From a virus, in IMG/VR virus record IMGVR_UViG_3300042691_026427, positions 85,249 to 149,248 of that record: 64,000 nt of DNA, one strand, 5' to 3'. This document shows positions 1 through 63,588 of the stretch, one piece after another. How positions within the stretch are numbered: position 1 is the stretch's first letter; each line of letters begins with the position of its first letter. The notes below the pieces were generated by a model. The model ran no database searches, was not told the DNA's origin, and saw nothing but the letters and a program-made list of their open reading frames with translations. Made by a program: the position numbers and the translations under genes.

Positions 1-2788
1 TATTAAAAGTACCAGTAGTTGAACCAACAATTTGTCCAGTTGAGGTACTGAAAAATAATGTACCCGGTAATGAGCTAGGACTTAAACTAAAACTTAATGT
101 TCCAACACCACCCGAGGCACCGATTGGAGTTAATAGGAAAGGTCCTGCATATGCAGAAAACACAACTGTTGAAGAATTAACAACAATAGTTGGCGGAACA
201 GGAGGTTTAATATATAAAGTAAATGTTCCAGTGTTAATCTGATTCACTGAATCACTAACACTTACACTGAAAGTATTTGTATTATAAGTCGATGTGGTTG
301 ATCCAGATACTCTGCCGGTTGATGTTGTAAAGGTTAATGGTGAAGGTAAAGGTTGATTAATATTATAAACTAACGAGCCTTTGCCTCCGGTACCAGTAAC
401 TGGAAAAAATGAATATGGGCCGCCAAACGAATCTAAAATTAAATTAGGATTATTAACAGTTATCGTAATTGGTGTCGGCGGTGGTTCTGGGGCTACATAT
501 AATGAGAATGTACCTGTATTGTTACCTCCAAGAGAATCCGTAACAGTTACTATATAAGTAGATGTAATTAATGTTGTAGTTGCTGTTCCAAAAATTGTGC
601 CTGTATTAGTAAAAGTAAGACCGTTGGGCGGCGGAATACTAGGACTTACAGAATATGTAAATGGCGCTACTCCACCTGAGCTTGCTGTAATTGGTCGAAT
701 ATAATTTGCAAATGTTATATTTTGAACTAATCTTATAGAAGACGATGTTTGCGTAAGAACTATTGGTGGCAGATTAACTGCAAGTAAAAATGAACTGGCA
801 GTCGTTTGTGCTAGCCAATCAGTTACTGTTACTGTATAAGATGTGCTACTACTCTGCACAGTAGGAACACCACTATAGGTGCCTGTACTTGTGTTAAATG
901 ATAAACTTATAGGTAAAGAAGGACTAATGCTAAAAGTAGAAGTTCCGAATCCTCCTGTAACATTGACAGGTTTAACTGGTGATGTTATAGGTACATTGTA
1001 GGTTAGATTTTGCGGACCTACTACAGAAGTTACAACTAAGGCCGGCGGAGGATTAATAGTTAAATTAAAATTCGACGAAGTTGTAGCACTAATTTCATCA
1101 TAAATGGTAACTGTATATGTAGTTTGAGGTAGTATACTTGTTGCAGTTCCACTAATTGTACCTGTACTAGAAAAAGTTAGACCAGTTTGAGAATTTAGAT
1201 TGGGACTTATAGTATATGTAAGGCTACCAAACCCTCCAGATCCTGTAATTGGTCTAAATGGGACAACAGGAACAGTATTTTTAACAAGAACAACACTACT
1301 ACTTGAAACAACTGCTGTTAACGGTCCCGAAGTTACACTTAATGAAAAAGATTTTGAATCGGTCTGCGAAATACTATCAGTAACACTTACTGTAAATGAT
1401 TGAGATATCTGGGAAGTAGGGGTGCCAGAAATTTGTCCAGTAGATGAGTTAAACGTTAATCCTGTTAAAGTCTGAATATTAGGATTAATTGACCATACAA
1501 CAGTTCCATAGCCCGCAGCAGTGGGGACTAGTGTAGCTGGTGAAAATGCGGTGATTGCGGCATTAACAGAAAATTGATAGCTTGTAACAGTCTGTTGTAA
1601 ATTTAATGACGGTACAGCTAAGACTGAAAGTGTAAAACTTTTTGCACTAGTATTTGCAGTAGGAGTAGTACTGTCTGTAACTGTTACTGTTACCGTTGCT
1701 GTACTAACTTGTGTAGCTACTCCTGAAATAAAACCAGTTGATGGATCAATACTTAATCCGGCAGGTAATCCAGTTTGACTGTAAATATACGGGGTTTTAC
1801 CACCACTAGCAGTCACTGGCTTAAATGCTGTAAATGATTGGCCTACATATAATGTAGGAATAGTTCCTAATGTGCTGCCCAGCGGCGCAGTTACTGTTCC
1901 GGCTGCAATAGCAATAGAATAAGATTGTTGGTTGCTTTTAGGAGGAGCAAAACTATCTGCAACTGCAATTGTAAAATTTGCAGTACCTGCTGGGCCAGTT
2001 GGTGTTCCGCTGATAACACCAGTAGTTGAATTTAACGTAAGTCCGTTTGGTAGACTACCACTTTGTACGGCAAATATAAATGGAGCAGTTCCTGTTCCTG
2101 AATTTACTGAAACAGTAGTAGTATATGCAACACCTACTGTTCCGGCTGGTCGAGCAACAGATGTTAATACTGGTGCAGTAGCAACAACGGTTCCAGATCC
2201 AGTTACAACTTCTAAATTAAAACTTACAGATTTTGTCGAACCGGCTTGGTCAGTAATTGTAATTGTATACGAAGTAGATGGAGATGTAACAGTAGGGGTA
2301 CCTGTTACTGAATAGGATACAGAGTTGTGCAGCCAAGGACCTGTTCCGTCACTTGCATTTGCAGACTTAATGGAACCGGTGCCTATTAATGTTAAACCGG
2401 CAGGAAGAGCAGGAACAATTGCTGATGTGTAAACCGGTGTAGTACCAGGCTTAGTTGCTGACGTTCCGCCAGTTGGGTATATAGATGTTCCGCCATAAAA
2501 TTCAACAACACCTTGATTTGCAAGCGCATTTACACCAAGAGAGAAGGTAGTACCGAGGGCAGTACCAATTAATTCAGGAATAAATGGTGCAATAACAGTG
2601 TTTACGTTGCGAGGATAAGGACCTGCGGCCGGTTTTGCCCATAGGATTTTACCTGCGTTGATACCCGTACCAACGCTGGCTTTAGATTGGCTACCGGCGT
2701 TGGTAACATACCAATCGCCGGCTCCGTAATTATAATTGGAGGCTACCGGAGTGGCTGCGGGGTAAGTGGAATAAAAAATTGCTGGCAC
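1..2788 (-). CDS. Large Ser/Thr-rich protein with tandem putative Ig (He_PIG-like) domains; 3' end runs off the window
   Basis: Absent from the ORF track because it is partial. GTG at 2788 follows TAAATA. The frame reads repeated 'LTFNSSTGQISGTPT...FTVSVTDS...SFSLSV' units and is in frame with the window edge. Confidence 0.8.
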   Translation of the reverse strand, partial: MPAIFYSTYPAATPVASNYNYGAGDWYVTNAGSQSKASVGTGINAGKILWAKPAAGPYPRNVNTVIAPFIPELIGTALGTTFSLGVNALANQGVVEFYGGTSIYPTGGTSATKPGTTPVYTSAIVPALPAGLTLIGTGSIKSANASDGTGPWLHNSVSYSVTGTPTVTSPSTSYTITITDQAGSTKSVSFNLEVVTGSGTVVATAPVLTSVARPAGTVGVAYTTTVSVNSGTGTAPFIFAVQSGSLPNGLTLNSTTGVISGTPTGPAGTANFTIAVADSFAPPKSNQQSYSIAIAAGTVTAPLGSTLGTIPTLYVGQSFTAFKPVTASGGKTPYIYSQTGLPAGLSIDPSTGFISGVATQVSTATVTVTVTDSTTPTANTSAKSFTLSVLAVPSLNLQQTVTSYQFSVNAAITAFSPATLVPTAAGYGTVVWSINPNIQTLTGLTFNSSTGQISGTPTSQISQSFTVSVTDSISQTDSKSFSLSVTSGPLTAVVSSSSVVLVKNTVPVVPFRPITGSGGFGSLTYTISPNLNSQTGLTFSSTGTISGTATSILPQTTYTVTIYDEISATTSSNFNLTINPPPALVVTSVVGPQNLTYNVPITSPVKPVNVTGGFGTSTFSISPSLPISLSFNTSTGTYSGVPTVQSSSTSYTVTVTDWLAQTTASSFLLAVNLPPIVLTQTSSSIRLVQNITFANYIRPITASSGGVAPFTYSVSPSIPPPNGLTFTNTGTIFGTATTTLITSTYIVTVTDSLGGNNTGTFSLYVAPEPPPTPITITVNNPNLILDSFGGPYSFFPVTGTGGKGSLVYNINQPLPSPLTFTTSTGRVSGSTTSTYNTNTFSVSVSDSVNQINTGTFTLYIKPPVPPTIVVNSSTVVFSAYAGPFLLTPIGASGGVGTLSFSLSPSSLPGTLFFSTSTGQIVGSTTGTFN

Positions 2789-2820
2789 GGTATATTTATT
2801 GCTTGTTAAAGTTCAATTTG

Positions 2821-5814
2821 TTATCGAGGTGTAATATCTTTTAATTGATAAGCGGTAAAGGATGCAGTTGTTACGGATCCAATTAACGGCTGTGTCAAAT
2901 AAATTGTATAGTTTCCCGATGCATCGGGACCTGAATATGCAGCAGAAAGAGGATCGGCTGGATCATAATTAGCAGTGATAGTATTAACATCAACTCCGTC
3001 ACCTCTTACATCCATACCAGGCATAATTCCAATAGGATTAGCAGGAGTTGTAACTGTAGTGGCTAATAAGTAAGAGTCGCCAGCAGTTCCAATTACAGGA
3101 AGATCAAATACAGGAGGAGTTATTTCTGCCATAACAAATACTGCTTGATTAACATCATCAAAATATGTGTCGCCGGGGCGCAGTGAAGAATACGGATTAG
3201 CTACAAAGTCTGTATAGTTTGTAAAATGTTTTGGTGCTCGTCTGTCTTGGTGTATGCCTTCGTCACCTAGGTCAATTCCTATATTTTTAACCCATTCAAC
3301 ATAGCCACCTGGGTTTATTGTTATATTTGTAAATGTTACAGATGCTGTTACAGCAACATCTTGCCCAATAGAAATAGTAGAAGTAGTGCCGGAACCTGTA
3401 TTAACAGAAACGCCAATCCCTCCTTCTATATTAGCCAACGAACTGCCGCCTGTACCCGGACTTCCTACATAACCAATTACGCCGGAACTACCGACAAAGC
3501 CGATACCTTCACTGCCAGTATAACCAAATGAACCTACAAATCCTTGACTACCATTATAACCGAAACTACCAGTAAAACCCACGGGTCCTTCACTGCCAGT
3601 ATATCCAATTGAACCTACAAATCCTATTGAACCTGTGTAGCCTTCACTACCAGTATATCCAATTGAACCTACAAATCCTATTGAACCTGTGTAGCCTTCA
3701 CTACCAGTGTAACCAAATGAACCTACAAAACCTTCACTTCCAGTATATCCAATCGAACCTACAAATCCTATTGATCCAGTATATCCAATCGAACCTGTCG
3801 ACCCTACAAAACCTTCACTACCGGTATAGCCAAATGATCCAAAGTAGCCTATTGATCCAGTATATCCAATTGAACCTGTTGAACCTACAAATCCTTCACT
3901 ACCAGTGTAACCAAATGATCCAAAGTAGCCTATTGATCCAGTATCGCCTTTGTCGCCCTTCGGTCCTTTGATTTCTCCTACGTCTGACCAAGATGATCCT
4001 GTCCATACGTTTAGGTGCCCGTCGTCATTAGTAATATATCCATCGCCGATATCTCCTGTATAGGGCAAAGGTAATAATGTGTAAGTTGATGTATTTCCAA
4101 CGATAGTTACCGATGTGCCATCATTTCCTTTGCTACCAGTATAACCAAATGATCCGGTATAGCCAAATGATCCTACAAAACCTTCACTACCAGTATAACC
4201 AAAACTACCAGTGTAACCAAATGATCCGGTATAGCCAAATGATCCTACAAAACCTTCACTACCAGTATATCCAAAACTACCAGTATAGCCTATCGATCCA
4301 GTATAACCAAATGATCCGGTATAGCCAAATGATCCTACAAAACCTTCACTACCAGTATAACCAAATGACCCAGTATAACCAAATGAACCAGTATAACCAA
4401 AGCTACCAGTGTAACCAAATGAACCTACATAACCTTCACTACCAGTAAAAGCTCGACTTCCAGTATAGCCAAATGATCCAGTATATCCAAATGATCCTGC
4501 ATAGCCTTCACTTCCTGTGTAACCAAATGACCCAGTGTAACCAAATGATCCGGTATAGCCAAATGATCCTACAAAACCTTCACTACCTGTATAACTTTGA
4601 CTACCAGTAAATCCAATGCTACCAGTAAATCCAATGCTACCAGTGTAACCAAATGAACCTACATAACCTTCACTACCTATAAATCCTCGTGAACCAGTAA
4701 AACCCTGACTACCTGTAAATGCTCTACTACCGGTATAACCAATGCTACCAGTGTATCCAAATGAACCTACATAACCTTCACTACCTGTATAACTTTGACT
4801 ACCAGTGTATCCAAATGAACCTGCATAGCCTTCACTACCAGTATAACCAAATGAACCTACAAAACCGTCGCTACCAGTATAACCAAATGAACCTACAAAA
4901 CCGTCGCTACCCTGAAAACCCTGACTTCCTACAAATCCCCTACTGCCAGCGAATCCTCGACTGCCAGTGTATCCAAATGAACCTACATAACCTTCACTAC
5001 CGGTGTAACTCTGGCTACCTGTAAAACCAATACTACCAGTATAACCTTCACTACCAGTAAATCCGAAACTACCGGTATACCCAAATGAACCTACAAAACC
5101 TTCACTACCAGTGTAGCCTATACTACCAGTGAAACCTTCACTACCGGCGTAGCCTATACTGCCGGGGGCGCCTTCACTACCGGTATAACCAAATGAACCT
5201 ACAAAACCTTCACTACCAGTGTAGCCTATACTACCAGTAAATCCAGTTTGTCCCACACTGCCCACATAGCCAATAATCTGACCTACGTTGACCCACTGCG
5301 AGCCATCCCATACATATAGATCTCCAGTGCTTTCTGCAATAAAACCATCAGATTGAGAAGCGCCAGTTGGCAATCCACTAGGATTAGTAACTGTTCCTTG
5401 AATTGTAACCGATGCACCTGGGGCACCTGGTTCTCCTTTTAGACCTTGACTACCAGTAAATCCAAAACTACCAGTATAACCTAAACCACCTAATTCTATT
5501 TGTTCCCAATTGGCATTAGCATTGGGCAAGTTACCGGTTGCTGTATTTCTATATTCACCTGGCAAAGAAACGTATTTGTAGTATTTTCCGCCTAAGAATG
5601 TTCTTCCGCTATTTGTATAACCAGTGACAACATAGACCAACATACCATCTTGCAGACGTTGTCCGGTTATGTTATGTAGTTGATCCCCAGAATTACCAGT
5701 TATAGAACGAAGAGAACCCCGTATTTCTGCATCTAATACGATGGGATGATTACTAGTCGGGCTCCATGTGCCCGGCCAAGTATTTCTTGTTAAGCCGTCA
5801 TAATTAGAAGTCAT
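2821..5814 (-). CDS. Collagen-like (Gly-X-Y)n tail fibre/whisker protein
   Basis: Long runs of G-X-Y triplets (GYT-GSF/GSE-GFV) interrupted by 'GDxYI...LxVWxGSxWxxVGxIxG' knob motifs. Confidence 0.85.
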   Translation of the reverse strand: MTSNYDGLTRNTWPGTWSPTSNHPIVLDAEIRGSLRSITGNSGDQLHNITGQRLQDGMLVYVVTGYTNSGRTFLGGKYYKYVSLPGEYRNTATGNLPNANANWEQIELGGLGYTGSFGFTGSQGLKGEPGAPGASVTIQGTVTNPSGLPTGASQSDGFIAESTGDLYVWDGSQWVNVGQIIGYVGSVGQTGFTGSIGYTGSEGFVGSFGYTGSEGAPGSIGYAGSEGFTGSIGYTGSEGFVGSFGYTGSFGFTGSEGYTGSIGFTGSQSYTGSEGYVGSFGYTGSRGFAGSRGFVGSQGFQGSDGFVGSFGYTGSDGFVGSFGYTGSEGYAGSFGYTGSQSYTGSEGYVGSFGYTGSIGYTGSRAFTGSQGFTGSRGFIGSEGYVGSFGYTGSIGFTGSIGFTGSQSYTGSEGFVGSFGYTGSFGYTGSFGYTGSEGYAGSFGYTGSFGYTGSRAFTGSEGYVGSFGYTGSFGYTGSFGYTGSFGYTGSEGFVGSFGYTGSFGYTGSIGYTGSFGYTGSEGFVGSFGYTGSFGYTGSFGYTGSEGFVGSFGYTGSFGYTGSKGNDGTSVTIVGNTSTYTLLPLPYTGDIGDGYITNDDGHLNVWTGSSWSDVGEIKGPKGDKGDTGSIGYFGSFGYTGSEGFVGSTGSIGYTGSIGYFGSFGYTGSEGFVGSTGSIGYTGSIGFVGSIGYTGSEGFVGSFGYTGSEGYTGSIGFVGSIGYTGSEGYTGSIGFVGSIGYTGSEGPVGFTGSFGYNGSQGFVGSFGYTGSEGIGFVGSSGVIGYVGSPGTGGSSLANIEGGIGVSVNTGSGTTSTISIGQDVAVTASVTFTNITINPGGYVEWVKNIGIDLGDEGIHQDRRAPKHFTNYTDFVANPYSSLRPGDTYFDDVNQAVFVMAEITPPVFDLPVIGTAGDSYLLATTVTTPANPIGIMPGMDVRGDGVDVNTITANYDPADPLSAAYSGPDASGNYTIYLTQPLIGSVTTASFTAYQLKDITPR

Positions 5815-57939: not shown

Positions 57940-57968
57940 TTGACAGGCTCTTTGTTTTCGTGTATAAT
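57940..57968 (+). promoter_or_regulatory. Consensus sigma70 promoter for the tRNA operon
   Basis: TTGACA-N17-TATAAT. Confidence 0.9.
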
Positions 57969-57984
57969 AACTACTGTTGAGAGG

Positions 57985-58062
<78 letters not shown>

Positions 58063-58069
58063 GAATAAC

Positions 58070-58154
58070 GCGACTGTGGTGAAATAGGTAGACACAAGAG
58101 ACTTAAAATCTCTCGCTTAACGGCGTGCCGGTTCGATTCCGGCCAGTCGCACCA
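58070..58154 (+). tRNA. tRNA-Leu(UAA)
   Basis: GCGACTG/CAGTCGC acceptor, AGAGA-CTTAAAA-TCTCT anticodon arm, long variable arm, CCA. Confidence 0.93.
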
Positions 58155-58199
58155 AATGGTATCTATATACACATGTAGTATATAGTAGTAGTGATAAAC

Positions 58200-58400
58200 C
58201 CTAGAACAACAGGATATTCTGTGGGGCAGTTGACAGGCACTTACCAGCCGAGAGTCAACAAGATCACAGAGAGGATAGGGTCTTAGACCGCCGCAACTGT
58301 TGAGAATCCAGGACCTTATGTGGTAAGAGGTTAGGGCTCGCTCAATGAGCAGGAACAACTGGATGGGGACAGGATCGGAGACCTGCCGAGTTCTGTACTG
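58200..58400 (+). ncRNA. Candidate structured ncRNA downstream of the tRNAs
   Basis: No credible plus-strand ORF; several complementary segments; 8 GGA motifs; followed by a terminator. Confidence 0.4.
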
Positions 58401-58436
58401 AAAAACCCTATAACCCTTGTGGCGGTAGGGTTTTTT
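58401..58436. terminator. Bidirectional terminator-like hairpin
   Basis: aaaaaCCCTA...TAGGGtttttt. Confidence 0.65.
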
Positions 58437-58437
58437 C

Positions 58438-58555
58438 TTATCCACAGGTTATTCACACATTATTCACAGGTTATCCACAGGCCGAGGGAGTTGTGGATAA
58501 CCTGTGGATTTGCTGTGGATAACCTGTTGGCAAGCTGTGGATAACCTGTGGATAA
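58438..58555. repeat. DnaA-box array (oriC/datA-like)
   Basis: TTATNCACA forward at 58438, 58449, 58460, 58471; reverse TGTGGATAA at 58492, 58514, 58536, 58547; degenerate slots at 58503 and 58525; 11-bp period. Confidence 0.9.
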
Positions 58556-58643
58556 CTTCCGAGCAGGCTGTAGTATTTTCGTATGCAGAAAAACCGTTCG
58601 CGCAGCCTCGCCGTCCACCCCCACTATGTTCGAACATGCGTGT

Positions 58644-58672
58644 ATTATAACATGGTTTTACCAAATTGTCAA
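58644..58672 (-). promoter_or_regulatory. sigma70 promoter firing leftward into the DnaA boxes
   Basis: TTGACA-atttggtaaaaccatgt-TATAAT (17-bp spacer, extended -10). Confidence 0.85.
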
Positions 58673-58711
58673 CCGGTAACCCTATAACCCTGCGGGCTTC
58701 TGGGTCTTTGG

Positions 58712-58740
58712 TTGCATGGGAGACGTTTTGCTGTTATAAT
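58712..58740 (+). promoter_or_regulatory. Early sigma70 promoter
   Basis: TTGCAT-N17-TATAAT with TGn extension; AAGGAG SD downstream. Confidence 0.75.
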
Positions 58741-58768
58741 ACACACATACACTAAAAAGGAGCTCAAA

Positions 58769-59017
58769 ATGTTTAATACACTTGCAAAAGCAAAATTAGT
58801 TCATAATAAACAAAAAGAATTGTATAAACTAGTTGTCGCATTTAATGTACATACTAAACAAAAAGATAATGGAGATATTGTACACATATTCCCTACGCAA
58901 AAAAAATGTGCTTATGTTAGCGGAGATATTAATTATGAGGAACTGCAAAAAGAAGTATCTCGTTTAACAGAAACTGCTAAAAAGCAATTGCGTACAGATA
59001 ATATTGAATTTGTTTAA
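58769..59017 (+). CDS. Early hypothetical protein (82 aa)
   Basis: AAGGAG SD then ATG 58769. Confidence 0.75.
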   Translation: MFNTLAKAKLVHNKQKELYKLVVAFNVHTKQKDNGDIVHIFPTQKKCAYVSGDINYEELQKEVSRLTETAKKQLRTDNIEFV

Positions 59018-59032
59018 TTAAAAGGAGCTATT

Positions 59033-59173
59033 ATGCAAGATAATGTTAAAGAGAAACTCACTAGTTTAATGTTGCAAATGCAAGACATTATTATGGAGGA
59101 TTACGAGGATAATGTCGACATACAGGATGCATTTAATGCATTAGCAAGTGCATTTGATTATTATATAGATTAA
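59033..59173 (+). CDS. Small acidic early protein (46 aa)
   Basis: AAGGAG SD; MQDNVKEKLTSLMLQMQDIIMEDYEDNVDIQDAFNALASAFDYYID; below the ORF-track cutoff. Confidence 0.7.
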   Translation: MQDNVKEKLTSLMLQMQDIIMEDYEDNVDIQDAFNALASAFDYYID

Positions 59174-59214
59174 TATTATATAATCAAAGGCCCTATGCAC
59201 TGTAGGGTCTTTGG

Positions 59215-59243
59215 TTGACGGATTGGTAAAACCTTGTTATAAT
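59215..59243 (+). promoter_or_regulatory. Early sigma70 promoter with TGGTAAAACC in the spacer
   Basis: TTGACG-N17-TATAAT. Confidence 0.85.
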
Positions 59244-59249
59244 ATACAC

Positions 59250-59588
59250 ATGACACAGACACTAGCACCCCGTAAGAAGCGAGCAGACCGCAACCACATC
59301 ATATACGAGCTGGTTGTCAACGGTCTCAACTACATTGGCGTCACTGCCAAGACAGAGTCTACAGTGAACAAGAGCGTGCTGTCGCGTGCGGCCAAGCACT
59401 TCTACCGTGCTAAGACTGAAGACAAGAACTGGTTGCTCTGTGCTGAACTTCGTAAGTTGAACAGCAAGGATGAGATCCTTGTATATGTACACGAAGTGAT
59501 CCGCGGCAAGGCGGCTGCTCACAAGCGTGAAGTTGAGATCCGTCGTATGGTCAAGCCTGTATTGAACACTGACACAAGAGGAGATTGA
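59250..59588 (+). CDS. GIY-YIG-like nuclease domain protein (probably leaderless)
   Basis: 'IIYELVVNGLNYIGVT...R...H...A...E...I....P.LN'; ATG 6 nt after the -10. Confidence 0.7.
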   Translation: MTQTLAPRKKRADRNHIIYELVVNGLNYIGVTAKTESTVNKSVLSRAAKHFYRAKTEDKNWLLCAELRKLNSKDEILVYVHEVIRGKAAAHKREVEIRRMVKPVLNTDTRGD

Positions 59589-59589
59589 G

Positions 59590-59787
59590 ATGTATCGTTA
59601 TATATGTAAGATGTTCTACGGTGACAAACTCTATACGGGCCACTATTGGGGCGATGACTACAGTTTGGCCCGTGCTCGCAGGGAAGTTGTAAAAATGCAA
59701 CGGATGCATCCTGTCATGCGATTTGAGTTGACAGATGGTAAAACCGGTGTTACAATAGATACATACACTAACAAGGAGCTGGCATGA
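59590..59787 (+). CDS. Early hypothetical protein
   Basis: GAGGAG SD. Confidence 0.6.
   Translation: MYRYICKMFYGDKLYTGHYWGDDYSLARARREVVKMQRMHPVMRFELTDGKTGVTIDTYTNKELA
59728..59756 (+). promoter_or_regulatory. Early sigma70 promoter embedded in the upstream ORF
   Basis: TTGACA-gatggtaaaaccggtgt-TACAAT, followed by ACATACAC..AAGGAG. Confidence 0.75.
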
Positions 59788-60059
59788 GTTATACACTATA
59801 CATCTACAAAGCAGACAAGCGGTGCAAGACAGGGGAGCGCCTGTTCTCTACAACTGTTTGGCCCGTAAAGGACGACAATGCCATGCGTCGCACTGTGGCA
59901 GAACTGTTTCCCTTGTATCGTCCAGAAGACGGCTTCCGCTTTGATTGGACACCCAGCATGAAGACTGTTCGTAACCTGATGTCGGGTGTTGAGATCGAAA
60001 TCCCGCATGATACTCCTCGTTCATGCGATCCCTCTAGCGAACTCTATTGGAGTATGTAA
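59784..60059 (+). CDS. Early hypothetical protein
   Basis: AAGGAG SD; 'NLMSG...I..DTP.SCDPSSE.YWSM' C-terminus. Confidence 0.8.
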   Translation: MSYTLYIYKADKRCKTGERLFSTTVWPVKDDNAMRRTVAELFPLYRPEDGFRFDWTPSMKTVRNLMSGVEIEIPHDTPRSCDPSSELYWSM

Positions 60060-60226
60060 TGGTTTGTCCTCACTGTACTAGTTCTACGCCTGTGTTCAGC
60101 ACCAAATGTCCTCACTGTACTGGTGAGTTCGGGCTGTTGGAACTGTGGTTCCTCAACTCGATCTACGCTATTACACTGGTGATCGGAGTTGGCGTCATGC
60201 TGTGGTTGTTTTCGCTGATGCTGTGA
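60059..60226 (+). CDS. Small zinc-ribbon membrane protein (55 aa)
   Basis: TAATG coupling; MVCPHCTSSTPVFSTKCPHCTGEF plus a hydrophobic C-terminal helix. Confidence 0.7.
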   Translation: MVCPHCTSSTPVFSTKCPHCTGEFGLLELWFLNSIYAITLVIGVGVMLWLFSLML

Positions 60227-60240
60227 TAAAGCCCTTTCGG

Positions 60241-60270
60241 TTGACAGGGTTACCGGTTTTACCATATAAT
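60241..60270 (+). promoter_or_regulatory. Early sigma70 promoter
   Basis: TTGACA-N18-TATAAT; spacer holds GGTTTTACCA (motif reversed). Confidence 0.8.
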
Positions 60271-60296
60271 ATACACTTACACACAAAGGAGCTGAT

Positions 60297-60587
60297 ATGT
60301 CTATTCAAACTGTTAACGCAGAGATCCTCGCAGGCAACTTCACTAACGAGCAACTGGGCTCTATCATCGACGCTGTGAAATTTGCCAGGTCACGTTTGGG
60401 TCAGATGAACAAGCGGGCACTGAGCATCGGCAGTAACGTCAACTTCACCAGCACCAAAACGGGCGTGAACTACACGGGCGTGGTCACAAAGATTGCGATC
60501 AAGTACATCACAGTCAAGACCGTCGGCGGCCTGTGGAAAGTGCCTGCTTCAATGCTCACTGTGATCGAAGATCACGAGTTTGCTTAA
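60297..60587 (+). CDS. Early hypothetical protein (SH3-like C-terminal half)
   Basis: AAGGAG SD; 'G..V.F......YTG.V.KI....I.V......WKVPASML'. Confidence 0.75.
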   Translation: MSIQTVNAEILAGNFTNEQLGSIIDAVKFARSRLGQMNKRALSIGSNVNFTSTKTGVNYTGVVTKIAIKYITVKTVGGLWKVPASMLTVIEDHEFA

Positions 60588-60598
60588 TAACCCTACGG

Positions 60599-60627
60599 TT
60601 GACAGGGACTTAGTTCCCTGTTATAAT
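60599..60627 (+). promoter_or_regulatory. Early sigma70 promoter
   Basis: TTGACA-N17-TATAAT; ACAGGGA...TCCCTGT inverted repeat spans the spacer. Confidence 0.85.
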
Positions 60628-60653
60628 ACATACATCGCAATAAGGAGCAGACA

Positions 60654-61016
60654 ATGACTGTAGTGTATAGAGCAGGTGATCAGACGTTTAAGGCCGTAGA
60701 GTTCCTGTTTGGCAAGCGTGAGCTGGTCAACGCAATTGTAGAGCAGGCCTTGATCAGCCAGACAGAAGCGTTCATTGAGATGATCATGGACGGGCAAGCA
60801 GACATGTCGCGCAATGGGATCAACGAAACACTGCGGGGCGTTAAGGACAGCGCCACTGACTTCATTGGCGACATGATGGGCGATCTCGAAAGCATGATTC
60901 GCGAGCGCATGAAGGCAGTGAACTACGGCGCGGCAGTTACTGGGATCAAGTACGATCTCGCTGGCGACGTTATAGACATCGAAGTTGATGTAAGCGTGGG
61001 CGTAGAAGTTCAATAA
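60654..61016 (+). CDS. Early hypothetical protein
   Basis: TAAGGAG SD. Confidence 0.75.
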   Translation: MTVVYRAGDQTFKAVEFLFGKRELVNAIVEQALISQTEAFIEMIMDGQADMSRNGINETLRGVKDSATDFIGDMMGDLESMIRERMKAVNYGAAVTGIKYDLAGDVIDIEVDVSVGVEVQ

Positions 61017-61024
61017 CCCTTCGG

Positions 61025-61053
61025 TTGACAGGGCTATTGTTTCCTGTTATAAT
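61025..61053 (+). promoter_or_regulatory. Early sigma70 promoter
   Basis: TTGACA-N17-TATAAT. Confidence 0.85.
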
Positions 61054-61081
61054 ACATGCATAGACAACAAAGGAGCTAGCA

Positions 61082-61315
61082 ATGCGCAAATACACTACAA
61101 AGCTGTTGGAAATGATGGACGAGGGTTTGCTCTCTGCAGAAGCTGTGGCAGAGATGTGTCTTGCTTACATGAGCGAAGACGACGTCAAAGACATGTGCCG
61201 TGCTAACGACATCCTGGACGAAGAGGACGAGGACTACATTGTAGAAGAAGAGGACGAAGAGTGGACTCCGGACAATGCAGACTTCAATGATCCCGGCTCA
61301 CGTCACCACTATTAA
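61082..61315 (+). CDS. Acidic early hypothetical protein
   Basis: AAGGAG SD; Asp/Glu-rich tail. Confidence 0.75.
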   Translation: MRKYTTKLLEMMDEGLLSAEAVAEMCLAYMSEDDVKDMCRANDILDEEDEDYIVEEEDEEWTPDNADFNDPGSRHHY

Positions 61316-61322
61316 TTAAGGA

Positions 61323-61706
61323 ATGAACATGCGATACTATGACGAACTGGCAACTTACGAGCGCGATGGCTTTACTGTGATCGTAGACAAGAGCTGGGAA
61401 GATCTCAGCGTCCGTGACTGTTTCGACGAAGAGTGCCACGACATTGATCAGATCTGCCGAGACATTGATTCGGGCAACTTGGATTGGTTCATGCTGCGTG
61501 TACGTGTAATGGTTGACAGTCTTGAGGTGGGCTCGCACTACCTGGGAGGGTGCCTGTACAAGGACGCTCGTGAAGTACTTACAGACGGTACCGCAGAGGA
61601 CTGCATTGGTGAAGCACTGCATGAAGCCAAACGTGAAGTCTACAAATATAAACAGAAGTTCGCTGAACTGAGCGACATGGTGGATCGTGAAGGCATTGAT
61701 GCGTAA
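61323..61706 (+). CDS. Early hypothetical protein
   Basis: TAAGGA SD; 'YLGGCLY' motif. Confidence 0.75.
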   Translation: MNMRYYDELATYERDGFTVIVDKSWEDLSVRDCFDEECHDIDQICRDIDSGNLDWFMLRVRVMVDSLEVGSHYLGGCLYKDAREVLTDGTAEDCIGEALHEAKREVYKYKQKFAELSDMVDREGIDA

Positions 61707-61926
61707 TATTAATGAAGTACTACAGTGGGCAGGTACAGTGTGCATTTTGACAATGTACGTGCTCATGAACTTCTTTCGGGAGTTGGGTCTAGATCCGTTG
61801 TTTGGACTCCTGGGCGGGTTGTGCTATGCCACCTGGGCATATCGTGTGGCAAATAAGCCACAATTGCTAGTTAACGTTGTGGCAATATCCGTATGTGTTG
61901 TAGGGTTATTCAAAGCACTTGGTTGA
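61699..61926 (+). CDS. Small membrane protein (about 3 TM)
   Basis: Hydrophobic segments; overlaps the upstream stop. Confidence 0.65.
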   Translation: MRNINEVLQWAGTVCILTMYVLMNFFRELGLDPLFGLLGGLCYATWAYRVANKPQLLVNVVAISVCVVGLFKALG

Positions 61927-61951
61927 CAAAGTGGTAAAACCTTGCTATAAT
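61923..61951 (+). promoter_or_regulatory. sigma70 promoter driving the ncRNA
   Basis: TTGACA-aagtggtaaaaccttgc-TATAAT. Confidence 0.85.
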
Positions 61952-61957
61952 TAGCAC

Positions 61958-62179
61958 ATGGACAGTTAGAAAAGAGTTAAAGGTTACCTAGACCACTAGG
62001 CGACTGGGATGATGACAGTACCGACGGGAGCTGGTCAAGTCCAGGAGCATGAAGCAGGAGCAATCCGGAGTTGCGGTGGACAATCTAGGAGTAATGACCG
62101 TGCAGGCCCTTGACGGAGACGTTCCCCTGGGTAGAGACAGATGCACAATGGTTCCTTTAATTCTTTTCTAACTGTCCAT
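61958..62179 (+). ncRNA. Candidate 222-nt structured ncRNA with a 26-bp closing stem and GGA(G) repeats
   Basis: 61958-61983 pairs with 62154-62179 (25 Watson-Crick + 1 G-U); starts at the predicted +1; no ORF (ATG GAC AGT TAG). Confidence 0.75.
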
Positions 62180-62185
62180 AAGGGG

Positions 62186-62214
62186 TTGACAGGTTGGTAA
62201 AACCGTGTTATAAT
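62186..62214 (+). promoter_or_regulatory. Early sigma70 promoter
   Basis: TTGACA-ggttggtaaaaccgtgt-TATAAT. Confidence 0.85.
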
Positions 62215-62245
62215 ACATACTTACACACAGCAACTAGGAGCAAAG

Positions 62246-62512
62246 ATGAAAGCACTACAAGAGTTCATTGCACAGAAGAATCACTGGAACTCATTCTTCA
62301 AAGGCGAGCAATACGAGATCAAGACTGCCAAAGGTCGTCAGCGTGTCGCAGATATGATTGACAGCGCACTGAGTCCCGAGAACTTGACCTGTGATGGAGA
62401 ACTTCCCCGCACAGAGGTCAATCGGAGATACAAAGAGCTGATGACTGCGGCCAAGCAACTGAAGAAGATGGACCCTGCTGTTAAGTTCTACGAATACGAA
62501 ACGGAGATCTAA
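62246..62512 (+). CDS. Early hypothetical protein
   Basis: AGGAG SD; 'LSPENLTCDGEL' motif. Confidence 0.8.
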   Translation: MKALQEFIAQKNHWNSFFKGEQYEIKTAKGRQRVADMIDSALSPENLTCDGELPRTEVNRRYKELMTAAKQLKKMDPAVKFYEYETEI

Positions 62513-62513
62513 T

Positions 62514-62726
62514 ATGCAAGCACAAGTCACAACCATCCTCCGACAGACTATCGAAGTGCCGGAAGGCACCGATCGACAGAGCGTGCTAGAGTTCCTAGCA
62601 GAGAATCAAAGCTTCAGTGAAGCGTTCATTGGGGTTAGCGACATGACACAACGGTTCCGCATTGTTGATATCAGTGTGGTGGAAGAAGAGATTACTGAAC
62701 TTGGTGAGGAGAGCTACGATGCCTAA
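62514..62726 (+). CDS. Early hypothetical protein
   Basis: GGAG SD; coupled to its neighbours. Confidence 0.7.
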   Translation: MQAQVTTILRQTIEVPEGTDRQSVLEFLAENQSFSEAFIGVSDMTQRFRIVDISVVEEEITELGEESYDA

Positions 62727-63270
62727 TTGGTGTAACAATACGCTGGAGCTCCAGCACGAAGACCCTGCAATGATCGAGCGTGCCAAGGCCGCTATGATGC
62801 GAGGCGAGTTCCTACAGGAGTTCATTCCTGTGCCCAAAGAGCTCAGCGAGGCAACTGCTAACTTCACAACCAACGAAACATTGGTGGAGAAGTATGGATA
62901 CAGTTCTTGGTACGACTTCTGTGTAGCCAATTGGGGTACCAAGTGGGATGTGGGCGGTGATGACTACGGTACTCCTACCATTACCGAAGACGGCAAGATG
63001 ATCGCAGGCTTCGACAGTGCCTGGGCTCCTCCTACTACTGCAATGGAGCGGTTGGTAGAGATGGGGTTCACTGTCAAGCTCTACTACTACGAGCCTGGTA
63101 TGTGCTTTGCTGGCATTTGGGAAGACGGTATCGATTCCTACTACGAGTACGGTGATATGTCGGCAGCTGAAGTCGCAGAGTGTTTCCCTAAGGAGCTGGA
63201 CGAGATGTTCTGCATTAGCGAAAGCATGGCAGAGTGGGAAGCAGAGAACGCCGAAGAAGATCAAGAATAA
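62719..63270 (+). CDS. DUF1281/YubB(Api92)-like ferredoxin-fold protein
   Basis: 'MPNWCNN.L...WYDFCVANWGTKWDV...FDSAWAPP...YYEPGMCFAG'; start reassigned to ATG 62719. Confidence 0.8.
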   Translation: MPNWCNNTLELQHEDPAMIERAKAAMMRGEFLQEFIPVPKELSEATANFTTNETLVEKYGYSSWYDFCVANWGTKWDVGGDDYGTPTITEDGKMIAGFDSAWAPPTTAMERLVEMGFTVKLYYYEPGMCFAGIWEDGIDSYYEYGDMSAAEVAECFPKELDEMFCISESMAEWEAENAEEDQE

Positions 63271-63294
63271 CCCTAAGCCCGCAAGGGCTTTTGG

Positions 63295-63323
63295 TTGACG
63301 CTGTGCGCTTTTTATTGTATAAT
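63295..63323 (+). promoter_or_regulatory. Early sigma70 promoter preceded by a hairpin
   Basis: AAGCCC-gcaa-GGGCTT hairpin, then TTGACG-N17-TATAAT. Confidence 0.8.
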
Positions 63324-63349
63324 ACACATACACTAACAAGGAGCACTAA

Positions 63350-63535
63350 ATGACAATTTACATTTTGCAAGCACAAGGGCTTGGGGACTTAGAGGACGCT
63401 TTTTACAACATAGGCGTTTACAGTACACACGACAAAGCACTGAACGCAGAGGAAAACTTTGTACGCGACTATTACAGCGAAGAGGGTTTTGCTGTAGCAA
63501 CTAACATAGAGATGATAGAGTTGGACATGGAATAA
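63350..63535 (+). CDS. Early hypothetical protein
   Basis: AAGGAG SD; 'IGVYST..KA'. Confidence 0.7.
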   Translation: MTIYILQAQGLGDLEDAFYNIGVYSTHDKALNAEENFVRDYYSEEGFAVATNIEMIELDME

Positions 63536-63559
63536 CACTACAGCGTATAGGGTTACTAG

Positions 63560-63588
63560 TTGACACTATGCGCTTTTTATGCTATAAT
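63560..63588 (+). promoter_or_regulatory. Early sigma70 promoter
   Basis: TTGACA-N17-TATAAT. Confidence 0.85.

Follow-up and report, generated by a model that had tools for sequence, protein, structure and literature searches.

A family of structured RNAs in uncultured T4-like giant phages, represented by an element in an early promoter cassette

Introduction

Stable, intricately folded RNAs without a known role are rare, and in the past such RNAs proved to be ribozymes, riboswitches or parts of protein–RNA machines. GOLLD and ROOL are large, ornate RNAs of phages and prophages; their function is unknown and they often lie near tRNA genes, while their complex folds, conserved junctions and tertiary-contact motifs are known from comparative genomics and structures. 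Here we analysed a 64,000-nucleotide stretch of DNA (the window), which is the final 64 kb of the 149-kb phage record IMGVR_UViG_3300042691_026427 in IMG/VR (CheckV completeness 44%), and in it an element of 222 nucleotides (nt) on the + strand at 61958–62179. It belongs to an uncatalogued family of structured RNAs that are found in uncultured T4-like giant phages.

Smaller phage RNAs have been described in T4, where rnaC and rnaD encode the small stable RNAs of species 1 and 2 (139 and 119 nt), whose roles are unknown; the genes of both lie next to tRNA genes and are transcribed together with these (PMC3014915). The genomes of T4-like phages also undergo modular shuffling at repeated early promoter-stem-loop (PeSL) motifs (PMC2839356, PMC4122927). 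In addition, 8,495 candidate RNAs of 29–151 nt have been reported from IMG/VR (PMC10690425); they are unnamed, and fragments of the present family may be among them. One virion protein from the window shares about 42% identity with its counterparts in T4-like cyanomyoviruses, the nearest cultured relatives, which marks the phage as an uncultured giant phage distantly related to these T4-like viruses.

An earlier reading of the window, made from its letters and hereafter called the sequence-only reading, had described the element as a promoter-driven non-coding RNA in an early cassette of its own, with a 26-base-pair (bp) closing stem, four inner hairpins and repeated GGA motifs, and had proposed that it is a decoy, for example a sponge for the regulators CsrA or RsmA.

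Results

Promoter and fold of the RNA

The RNA is preceded by a perfect sigma-70 consensus promoter, just where the sequence-only reading had placed it, and its 5' arm begins seven bases 3' of the −10 box, at 61958, with the closing helix starting at about +1. The features of the RNA gene are the following (RNA numbering starts with position 1 at 61958).

61923–61951, + strand: perfect early promoter TTGACA-N17-TATAAT, −35 box at 61923–61928, −10 box at 61946–61951 with TG just 5' of it, predicted start at about 61958
61958–62179, + strand: structured RNA, 222 nt
61958–61983 (RNA 1–26), + strand: 5' arm of helix P1, 26 nt, paired with 62154–62179
between the P1 5' arm and P2, + strand: junction UUA
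61987–61991 (RNA 30–34), + strand: P2 5' strand CCUAG, paired with 62085–62089
between P2 and P3, + strand: one-base bulge
61993–61997 (RNA 36–40), + strand: P3 5' strand CCACU, paired with 62075–62079
after the P3 5' strand, + strand: junction UAGG
62000–62048, + strand: P4 domain, consisting of an outer helix and the inner hairpin P4b
RNA 43–51 with RNA 83–91: P4 outer helix, which includes tandem G-A/A-G
62023–62026 (RNA 66–69), + strand: P4b tetraloop GACG
62049–62053, + strand: junction J4/5, AUGAA, with A, G, A and A at least 95% conserved
62057–62066 (RNA 100–109), + strand: P5 hairpin GGA-GCAA-UCC with a GNRA tetraloop
62067–62074 (RNA 110–117), + strand: purine-rich junction J5/3, with the only GGA in which both G's are unpaired
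62075–62079 (RNA 118–122), + strand: P3 3' strand GGUGG
62085–62089 (RNA 128–132), + strand: P2 3' strand CUAGG
62090–62097 (RNA 133–140), + strand: junction J2/6, AGUAAUGA, its GUAAUG near-invariant and partly fixed by the search pattern
62098–62151 (RNA 141–194), + strand: P6 domain with P6a (CCGUGCA with UGCAC..GG), an inner helix and a loop
62117–62123 (RNA 160–166), + strand: P6 loop AGACGUU, 7 nt
between P6 and the P1 3' arm, + strand: UU
62154–62179 (RNA 197–222), + strand: P1 3' arm, 26 nt

The AU-rich P1 leads into a three-way junction whose arms are P2/P3 and P6, and the P2/P3 arm leads to a second junction carrying P4/P4b and the GNRA-capped P5. The predicted folding energy was −88.2 kcal/mol for the + strand (z = −6.0) and −75.8 kcal/mol for the − strand. 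The 26-nt inverted repeat that forms P1 is 96% complementary. Its single deviation is a G-U pair on the + strand, which the sequence-only reading had also noticed, and corresponds to C-A on the − strand.

The element belongs to a family selected at the RNA level

In related IMG/VR contigs we looked for homologous elements in three ways: by way of the flanking proteins, with a scan for the 5' arm and with a scan for the core motifs. This yielded 92 distinct cores from phage contigs, 88 of them with full flanks. The family RNAs are about 205–280 nt long and their core follows the order GGUUACC, P2, P3, UAGG, P4/P4b, A-GAA, P5, P3', P2', GUAAUG, to which the window RNA conforms. A covariance model, R1, covers a core of 124 positions, and P1, P5 and P6 were analysed by scripts. 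The window scored 102.8 bits against R1 (E = 2e-23), but it is among the sequences from which R1 was built; independent members scored 48–115 bits. R1 gave one match in the window's own record, one each in 19 of 50 related records, including both that are rated 100% complete, and one each in five more genomes that are nearly complete. The copy number is one in its own record and in each of the seven near-complete genomes (eight records).

The inner helices were examined on 87 distinct cores. In P2, P3, P4 and P4b, 92.3% of the alignment cells were standard pairs, as compared with 68.9% after partner shuffling, and cells with changes on both sides numbered 492 against 150 in the shuffled set; this alignment was fitted to R1 and so favours the structure of R1 itself. 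When one strand was slid by 1–3 columns as a control, at most 43% of the cells paired. An alignment of 29 sequences gave the same picture, and RNAalifold run on a plain MAFFT alignment predicted P2 and P3 independently of R1. In P2, 99.5% of the cells were paired and both sides changed in two of the five pairs; in P3 all cells were paired, again with two-sided changes in two of five pairs. The variation was broader in P4 and P4b proper, where both sides changed in 12 of 13 pairs. P5 ended in a GNRA loop on a stem of 3 bp or more in 52 of the 87 members (4.1 expected), and P6a was 97% paired as against 82% with permuted partners, its third pair being G-C, A-U or C-G.

P1 was analysed in 59 members, which have 33 different arm sequences between them; pairs were numbered outward from the junction and no gaps were allowed. 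Its first 20 bp were 96.5% paired, whereas permuted partners gave 66.4% (72.1% in the best permutation). Three to six pair types occurred at most positions, and pairing fell to background beyond bp 21–23. The helix measures 26 bp in the window and has a median of 21 bp in the family, with compensatory changes. G-U or U-G pairs numbered 146 and A-C or C-A mismatches seven; this asymmetry fixes the + strand as the functional one and points to selection on an RNA, not on a DNA palindrome. The 5' arm is rich in purines (A-U 622 vs U-A 310; G-C 283 vs C-G 116), certain wobbles recur (U-G at bp 7 in 33 of the 59 members, G-U at bp 8 in 21), and U-U is the most frequent mismatch. The strand asymmetry and the fixed wobbles possibly mark a docking or recognition site.

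About 16 junction bases are near-invariant. The helices covary, and positions conserved in 95% or more of the members are concentrated in the junction strands, although several of these bases had been fixed by the search pattern. Two members recovered by R1 alone (L180 and L181) retain identical junction motifs. All three reading frames were interrupted by stops in 77 of 77 members, with a median longest internal open reading frame (ORF) of 22 amino acids (aa). Because every helix covaries, the wobble count in P1 is 146 to 7 and stop codons interrupt all frames in all members, selection at the RNA level is well grounded. The comparison thus supports the proposal that the window element is a promoter-driven, phage-encoded non-coding RNA in its own early cassette.

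The inner fold of the sequence-only reading had to be revised. All four of its hairpins can be written from the letters, and one of them, GUGCA/UGCAC, is upheld by the family as P6a; the other three were replaced. The hairpin CCUAG-acca-CUAGG shows no covariation, as CCUAG pairs instead with the distant CUAGG at 62085–62089: in members where the P2 5' strand reads CCUAC, CCCAC or CCAAG it is this distant strand that compensates, and the nearby UAGG is invariant. The hairpin GCAAU-ccgga-GUUGC gives way to the family-wide P5, GGA-GCAA-UCC, as is shown by insertions such as an extra hairpin in L013. The stem GACG-gaga-CGUU is peculiar to the window member, the conserved feature at this place being the loop AGACGUU. 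The assignments of P2–P4 were made by covariation, and the end pairs of P4 and P6 by hand.

Searches for known relatives

The family is not in Rfam 15, nor was it found in a literature search. When the window and 12 diverse members were searched against Rfam 15, at the gathering threshold and at E up to 10, only tRNAs were matched. The element had no blastn match among cultured phages, and R1 matched neither the whole T4 genome, rnaC and rnaD included, nor three cultured cyanomyoviruses; in the T4 tRNA region (69000–74000), searched with filters off, it reached at most 4.7 bits. A motif-pattern scan of 185,579 prokaryote genomes returned eight hits, a number attributable to chance only, and none was upheld by R1.

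Membership in three known classes was considered and rejected. There was no match to the Rfam models of Y RNA or YrlA, and the CAGCA handle is absent from 61958–62179; no model of the signal recognition particle (SRP) RNA matched and an S domain is missing; the downstream contexts of the family are tRNAs, promoters or unrelated ORFs and no known riboswitch class matched.

Genomic settings and exchange of the cassette

Two settings were seen in the family, stand-alone early cassettes as in the window and units that resemble rRNA operons. The operon-type units have, in this order, a boxA-like box, the structured RNA inside a stalk of about 21 bp, and then tRNAs. The boxA-like sequence TGTTCTTTAAAAA was found in 21 members about 50 nt 5' of the core (in three of them at about 105 nt), mostly some 25–30 nt 5' of P1 in tRNA-operon members such as L186, L188, L203 and L261, and it differs by no more than three bases from the boxA of the E. 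coli rrn operons. Across 77 members, a same-strand tRNA starts within 60 nt 3' of P1 in 25, often at 6–20 nt, and a tRNA lies just upstream in eight; the downstream tRNAs are those for Asp, Glu, Ser, Leu or Tyr. A near-consensus promoter ends just 5' of P1 in 27 of the 77 members, and in 27 a promoter abuts or overlaps the 3' end of the RNA. In L056 and L109 a ribosome-binding site and an ATG come directly after the RNA, with no second promoter.

P1 is merely 8–13 bp long in some stand-alone relatives. In short-P1 relatives (L164 at 1300–1700, L165, L169 and L170) we noticed that the promoter of the next gene is built into the RNA gene, its TTGACA being the 3' strand of P6 and its TATAAT lying 17 nt further on, in the 3' arm of P1.

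On the 3' side of the window RNA, two features are relevant.

62186–62214, + strand: second consensus promoter, 263 nt beyond the first, which drives the next gene
62246–62512, + strand: 88-aa gene with no assigned function, downstream of the RNA and not its obligate partner

The second promoter begins six bases 3' of the closing helix, and no intrinsic terminator was predicted 3' of 62179. In two complete genomes the RNA and the homologue of the 88-aa gene are 1.5 kb and about 53 kb apart. IMG/VR contains more than 588 relatives of the 88-aa protein, which matches no Pfam family and has no counterpart in cultured phages.

An empty site was found by comparing the window at 61640–62260 with the close relative L008 at 2400–3015. 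The same upstream membrane-protein gene and the same 88-aa gene are present in L008, with one promoter between them and no RNA, and the indel is a 263-nt unit of promoter plus RNA, not a segment bounded by the inverted repeats. This single comparison points to gain or loss of the RNA cassette through exchange between promoter repeats. Such exchange would explain that the RNA precedes different genes in different relatives.

The same data bear on the idea that the element acts as DNA, being a miniature inverted-repeat transposable element (MITE) or another palindromic mobile or replication sequence whose inverted repeats only imitate an RNA helix. The 26-bp terminal inverted repeats, the closest relatives, in which the interior varies while the ends are well kept, and the patchy presence 5' of the 88-aa gene would all suit a mobile element. 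However, the element is single-copy in all eight records, its P1 shows the wobble bias and its inner helices covary, its flanks (TAGCAC and AAGGGG) differ and show no target-site duplication, and the L008 site is without promoter and RNA, not just without the stretch from repeat to repeat. We therefore find a DNA-level element hardly credible.

GGA motifs are neither enriched nor conserved

The decoy proposal of the sequence-only reading was built on the GGA motifs. Its description of them is accurate: the window RNA has eight internal GGA, six of which are GGAG, and five of them start at 62044, 62057, 62067, 62078 and 62088, at distances of 13, 10, 11 and 10 nt from start to start. No excess of GGA over chance was found, however: the sequence is rich in G and A, and dinucleotide shuffles of it contained 6.2 ± 1.7 (P = 0.2). 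The six GGAG compare with 2.5 expected (nominal P = 0.02), and this member alone is an outlier in that respect. In 59 members the mean number of GGA was 4.41 (range 1–8) against 4.47 expected, and that of GGAG 1.53 against 1.49, with no GGAG at all in 15.

Seven GGA sites fall within the modelled core. Only those at RNA positions 121 (71 of 87 members) and 131 (63 of 87) are conserved, and their G's form the 3' strands of P3 and P2, respectively; the six non-structural sites that were checked are kept in between one and 30 of the 87 members. Of the eight internal GGA, seven have at least one G in an assigned helix, and only the GGA at 62067–62069, kept in 30 of 87 members, is free.

A sponge for CsrA or RsmA, or a mimic of the Shine-Dalgarno sequence, would hold regulators or ribosomes on exposed GGA motifs, and the number, the GGAG count and the regular spacing in the window member are what such an RNA would offer. 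The lack of enrichment here and in the family, the pairing of the conserved motifs, the missing terminator and the absence of any Csr/Rsm match in Rfam at E up to 10 argue against it, and CsrA was not found in five related phage records by a search that detected CsrA in only three of 14 control bacteria. We regard this explanation as very improbable. RegB cuts at GGAG (PMC3014915), and no RegB homologue scored above the cut-off in the same five records.

Proposed processing and action in trans

The explanation that we favour, with a probability of about 0.55, is that the family consists of processed, trans-acting binding RNAs, of which the window element is a stand-alone copy in an early cassette. 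Since no terminator follows the RNA, the primary transcript would read through into the next gene or tRNA. P1, with at least 21 bp, would then serve as a processing stalk for the RNase III of the host, and cleavage would release a compact RNA closed by about 8–12 bp. Ribosomal RNAs are cut from rrn transcripts by RNase III in a like manner, and the length and AU-richness of the family P1 fit RNase III substrates. Excision by the host enzyme is proposed because the layout resembles that of rrn operons, because the stalk is AU-rich and gapless over 21 bp, and because a phage RNase III gene was not found in five related phage records; by analogy, these features suggest RNase III excision. The 8–13-bp P1 of short-stalk relatives is about as long as what such a cut would leave of a long stalk.

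Once released, the RNA would work in trans and offer a specific binding platform to a protein of the host or of the phage; alternatively, its target could be the translation or tRNA-processing machinery. An autonomous product acting in trans is suggested by the heterogeneous downstream contexts, and the mode of expression, as judged from the promoters and tRNA units, suggests early synthesis of a stable RNA in large amounts. The combination of invariant junctions with covarying helices and a GNRA cap is typically seen where an RNA provides a specific pocket or a platform for proteins, and is not typical of sponges.

Several points weigh against this explanation. The RNA is known here from sequence alone and no cultured relative carries it, and RNase III cleavage is argued only from the helix length, the AU-richness and the rrn-like layout. 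Members with a P1 of 8–13 bp cannot be RNase III substrates, which means that the enzyme cannot be needed everywhere and that the role of the stalk may be chiefly structural. No protein gene tracks the position of the RNA as that of a partner might. Finally, where the RNA is the sole 5' leader of the next gene, as in L056, the arrangement also fits a role in cis.

Such a role would make the element a leader or processing module for its own transcript that might set the 5' end and the stability of a downstream mRNA or tRNA precursor by RNase III cleavage, or might aid antitermination, with no function in trans. Transcription without a terminator would enter the next gene, L056 and L109 lack a second promoter between the RNA and the ribosome-binding site, and in tRNA operons the RNA is often the first unit after boxA. 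The partners are heterogeneous, however, including five kinds of tRNA and unrelated ORFs; a separate promoter, as in the window, makes a leader unnecessary; and the near-invariant bases, the GNRA-capped P5 and five inner helices exceed what a processing site needs. We consider a purely cis-acting module unlikely.

Possible tertiary contacts and alternative functions

The fold can also be viewed as two hairpin loops joined by a GUAAU-containing strand and set on a long helix. This shape, which might resemble a tRNA elbow or the Alu part of SRP RNA, could make the RNA a mimic or decoy that ties up the ribosome, an enzyme acting on tRNA or a defence protein that senses RNA; we consider this explanation rather unlikely. 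The junction GUAAU resembles the UGUAAU turn between helices 3 and 4 of the SRP Alu domain, and co-expression with tRNAs in rrn-like units would suit a mimic. The loops of P4b (G-N-C-R) and P6 (A-G-A-Y-G-N-N) always allow a C-G plus an R-Y pair, and the sole A-U variant is confined to the pairing GGCA/AGAUGCG in five members. Against this, native loop pairs were no more complementary than permuted ones (3.19 vs 3.08, P = 0.28), the variable loop position pairs in just 35 of 79 cases, no SRP, tRNA-like or Y-RNA model matched in the 13 members searched, a T-arm and a CCA end are lacking, and the resemblance is topological only.

A kissing loop between P4b and P6 was rejected as it performed no better than permuted partners; a contact of 2 bp between the two loops is possible, judging from the loop sequences. 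We also considered a pseudoknot seen by eye, CAUGAA/AGUAAUG with a loop-E-like AGUA/GAA, and rejected it; the CAU, CAA and CAC types could not be brought into one consistent register, and the search pattern had fixed one of its strands.

Another alternative is a new ribozyme or ligand-sensing RNA in which the invariant junction core forms a catalytic or small-molecule pocket. The concentration of conservation in junction strands between covarying helices would fit, as would the GNRA-capped P5, a hallmark of tertiary contacts in riboswitch aptamers and ribozymes. On the other hand, there is no conserved expression platform and the downstream contexts differ, no known ribozyme or riboswitch model matched, and there is no sign of a cleavage site or of a metabolic gene linked to the RNA, so we find this reading quite unlikely.

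Other features of the early region

The window contains nine perfect sigma-70 consensus sites (0.19 expected), eight of which lie on the + strand in an early region at 57.9–63.6 kb; these eight are packed into 5.7 kb (57940–63588). The promoter of the RNA belongs to a repeated promoter family, D1, and has GGTAAAACC in its spacer. Several promoters of the 57940–63588 region likewise carry GGTAAAACC in the spacer, followed by an ACAC-rich leader with AAGGAGC, a layout like that of the PeSL cassettes of T4-like phages. Upstream of the RNA, a small hydrophobic ORF of about 75 aa (61699–61926) has a stop codon that overlaps the −35 box of the RNA promoter; a Pfam search with it gave no match.

Further upstream, at 58437–58560, about ten 9-mers resembling DnaA boxes (TTATCCACA and its complement) are arranged with 11-nt spacing in two opposed clusters. 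This array, which is oriC-like or may titrate DnaA, lies shortly after the genes for tRNA-Met and tRNA-Leu (57985–58154). Between the two tRNAs and a hairpin with a T-run (58404–58435), the stretch 58200–58436 has about 200 nt without an ORF. It is not of the RNA family, as R1 gives a single match across the whole record.

Discussion

The uncultured giant phages that carry the family form an abundant group, in which it is widespread at one copy per genome. The RNA would be expressed from the strongest promoters or along with tRNAs. Its fold is clear and open to test, and with a size of about 200 nt it offers a compact target for RNA structure work and for the search for partners. The window contributes the stand-alone form with a 26-bp stalk, the empty-site comparison, the statistics on the rrn-like layout and a direct test of the sponge proposal; the label of a CsrA sponge, tempting from the GGA count alone, has been corrected.

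When compared with known systems, CsrB, RsmY and RsmZ share with the window member, and with this member only, the property of being non-coding RNAs with several GGA motifs. The GGA motifs of the window RNA and the family are paired, unconserved and not enriched, and neither a terminator nor a model match was found. The PeSL cassettes are similar in that early-promoter repeats flank small swappable units, here an RNA plus one promoter that is present or absent, but the cargo in our case is an RNA gene and not an ORF.

The likeness to rRNA operons is seen in the operon-type members, with their boxA-like box, gapless stalk of about 21 bp and tRNAs. The enclosed RNA, however, is only about 170 nt long and unrelated to rRNA, the window copy has neither boxA nor tRNA, and cleavage is only proposed. 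We offer it as a tentative and rather doubtful idea that the family is a new compact class of phage RNA made like a miniature rRNA, with a strong promoter, boxA, an RNase III stalk and tRNAs, and that its invariant junction core would dock as a structural mimic on the host machinery of translation or tRNA processing or be a new catalytic or ligand-binding RNA; if this were true, giant phages would supply an RNA effector of an undescribed kind.

Among described RNAs, those nearest in kind to the family are RNAs C and D from the tRNA region of T4, together with the large, ornate RNAs of phages. The T4 RNAs have no detectable homology to the family core; the rnaC product ends in a tRNA-like T arm, whereas the family RNA has a closing stalk of 21–26 bp and a different core, and the window RNA has its own promoter. 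Most members of the family sit in tRNA arrays, as rnaC and rnaD do. GOLLD and ROOL are larger, roughly 600–800 nt compared with about 220 nt, and none of the Rfam models matched the family, but the present RNAs are, like them, borne by phages, often close to tRNA genes and built as complex folds around conserved junctions with tertiary-contact motifs.

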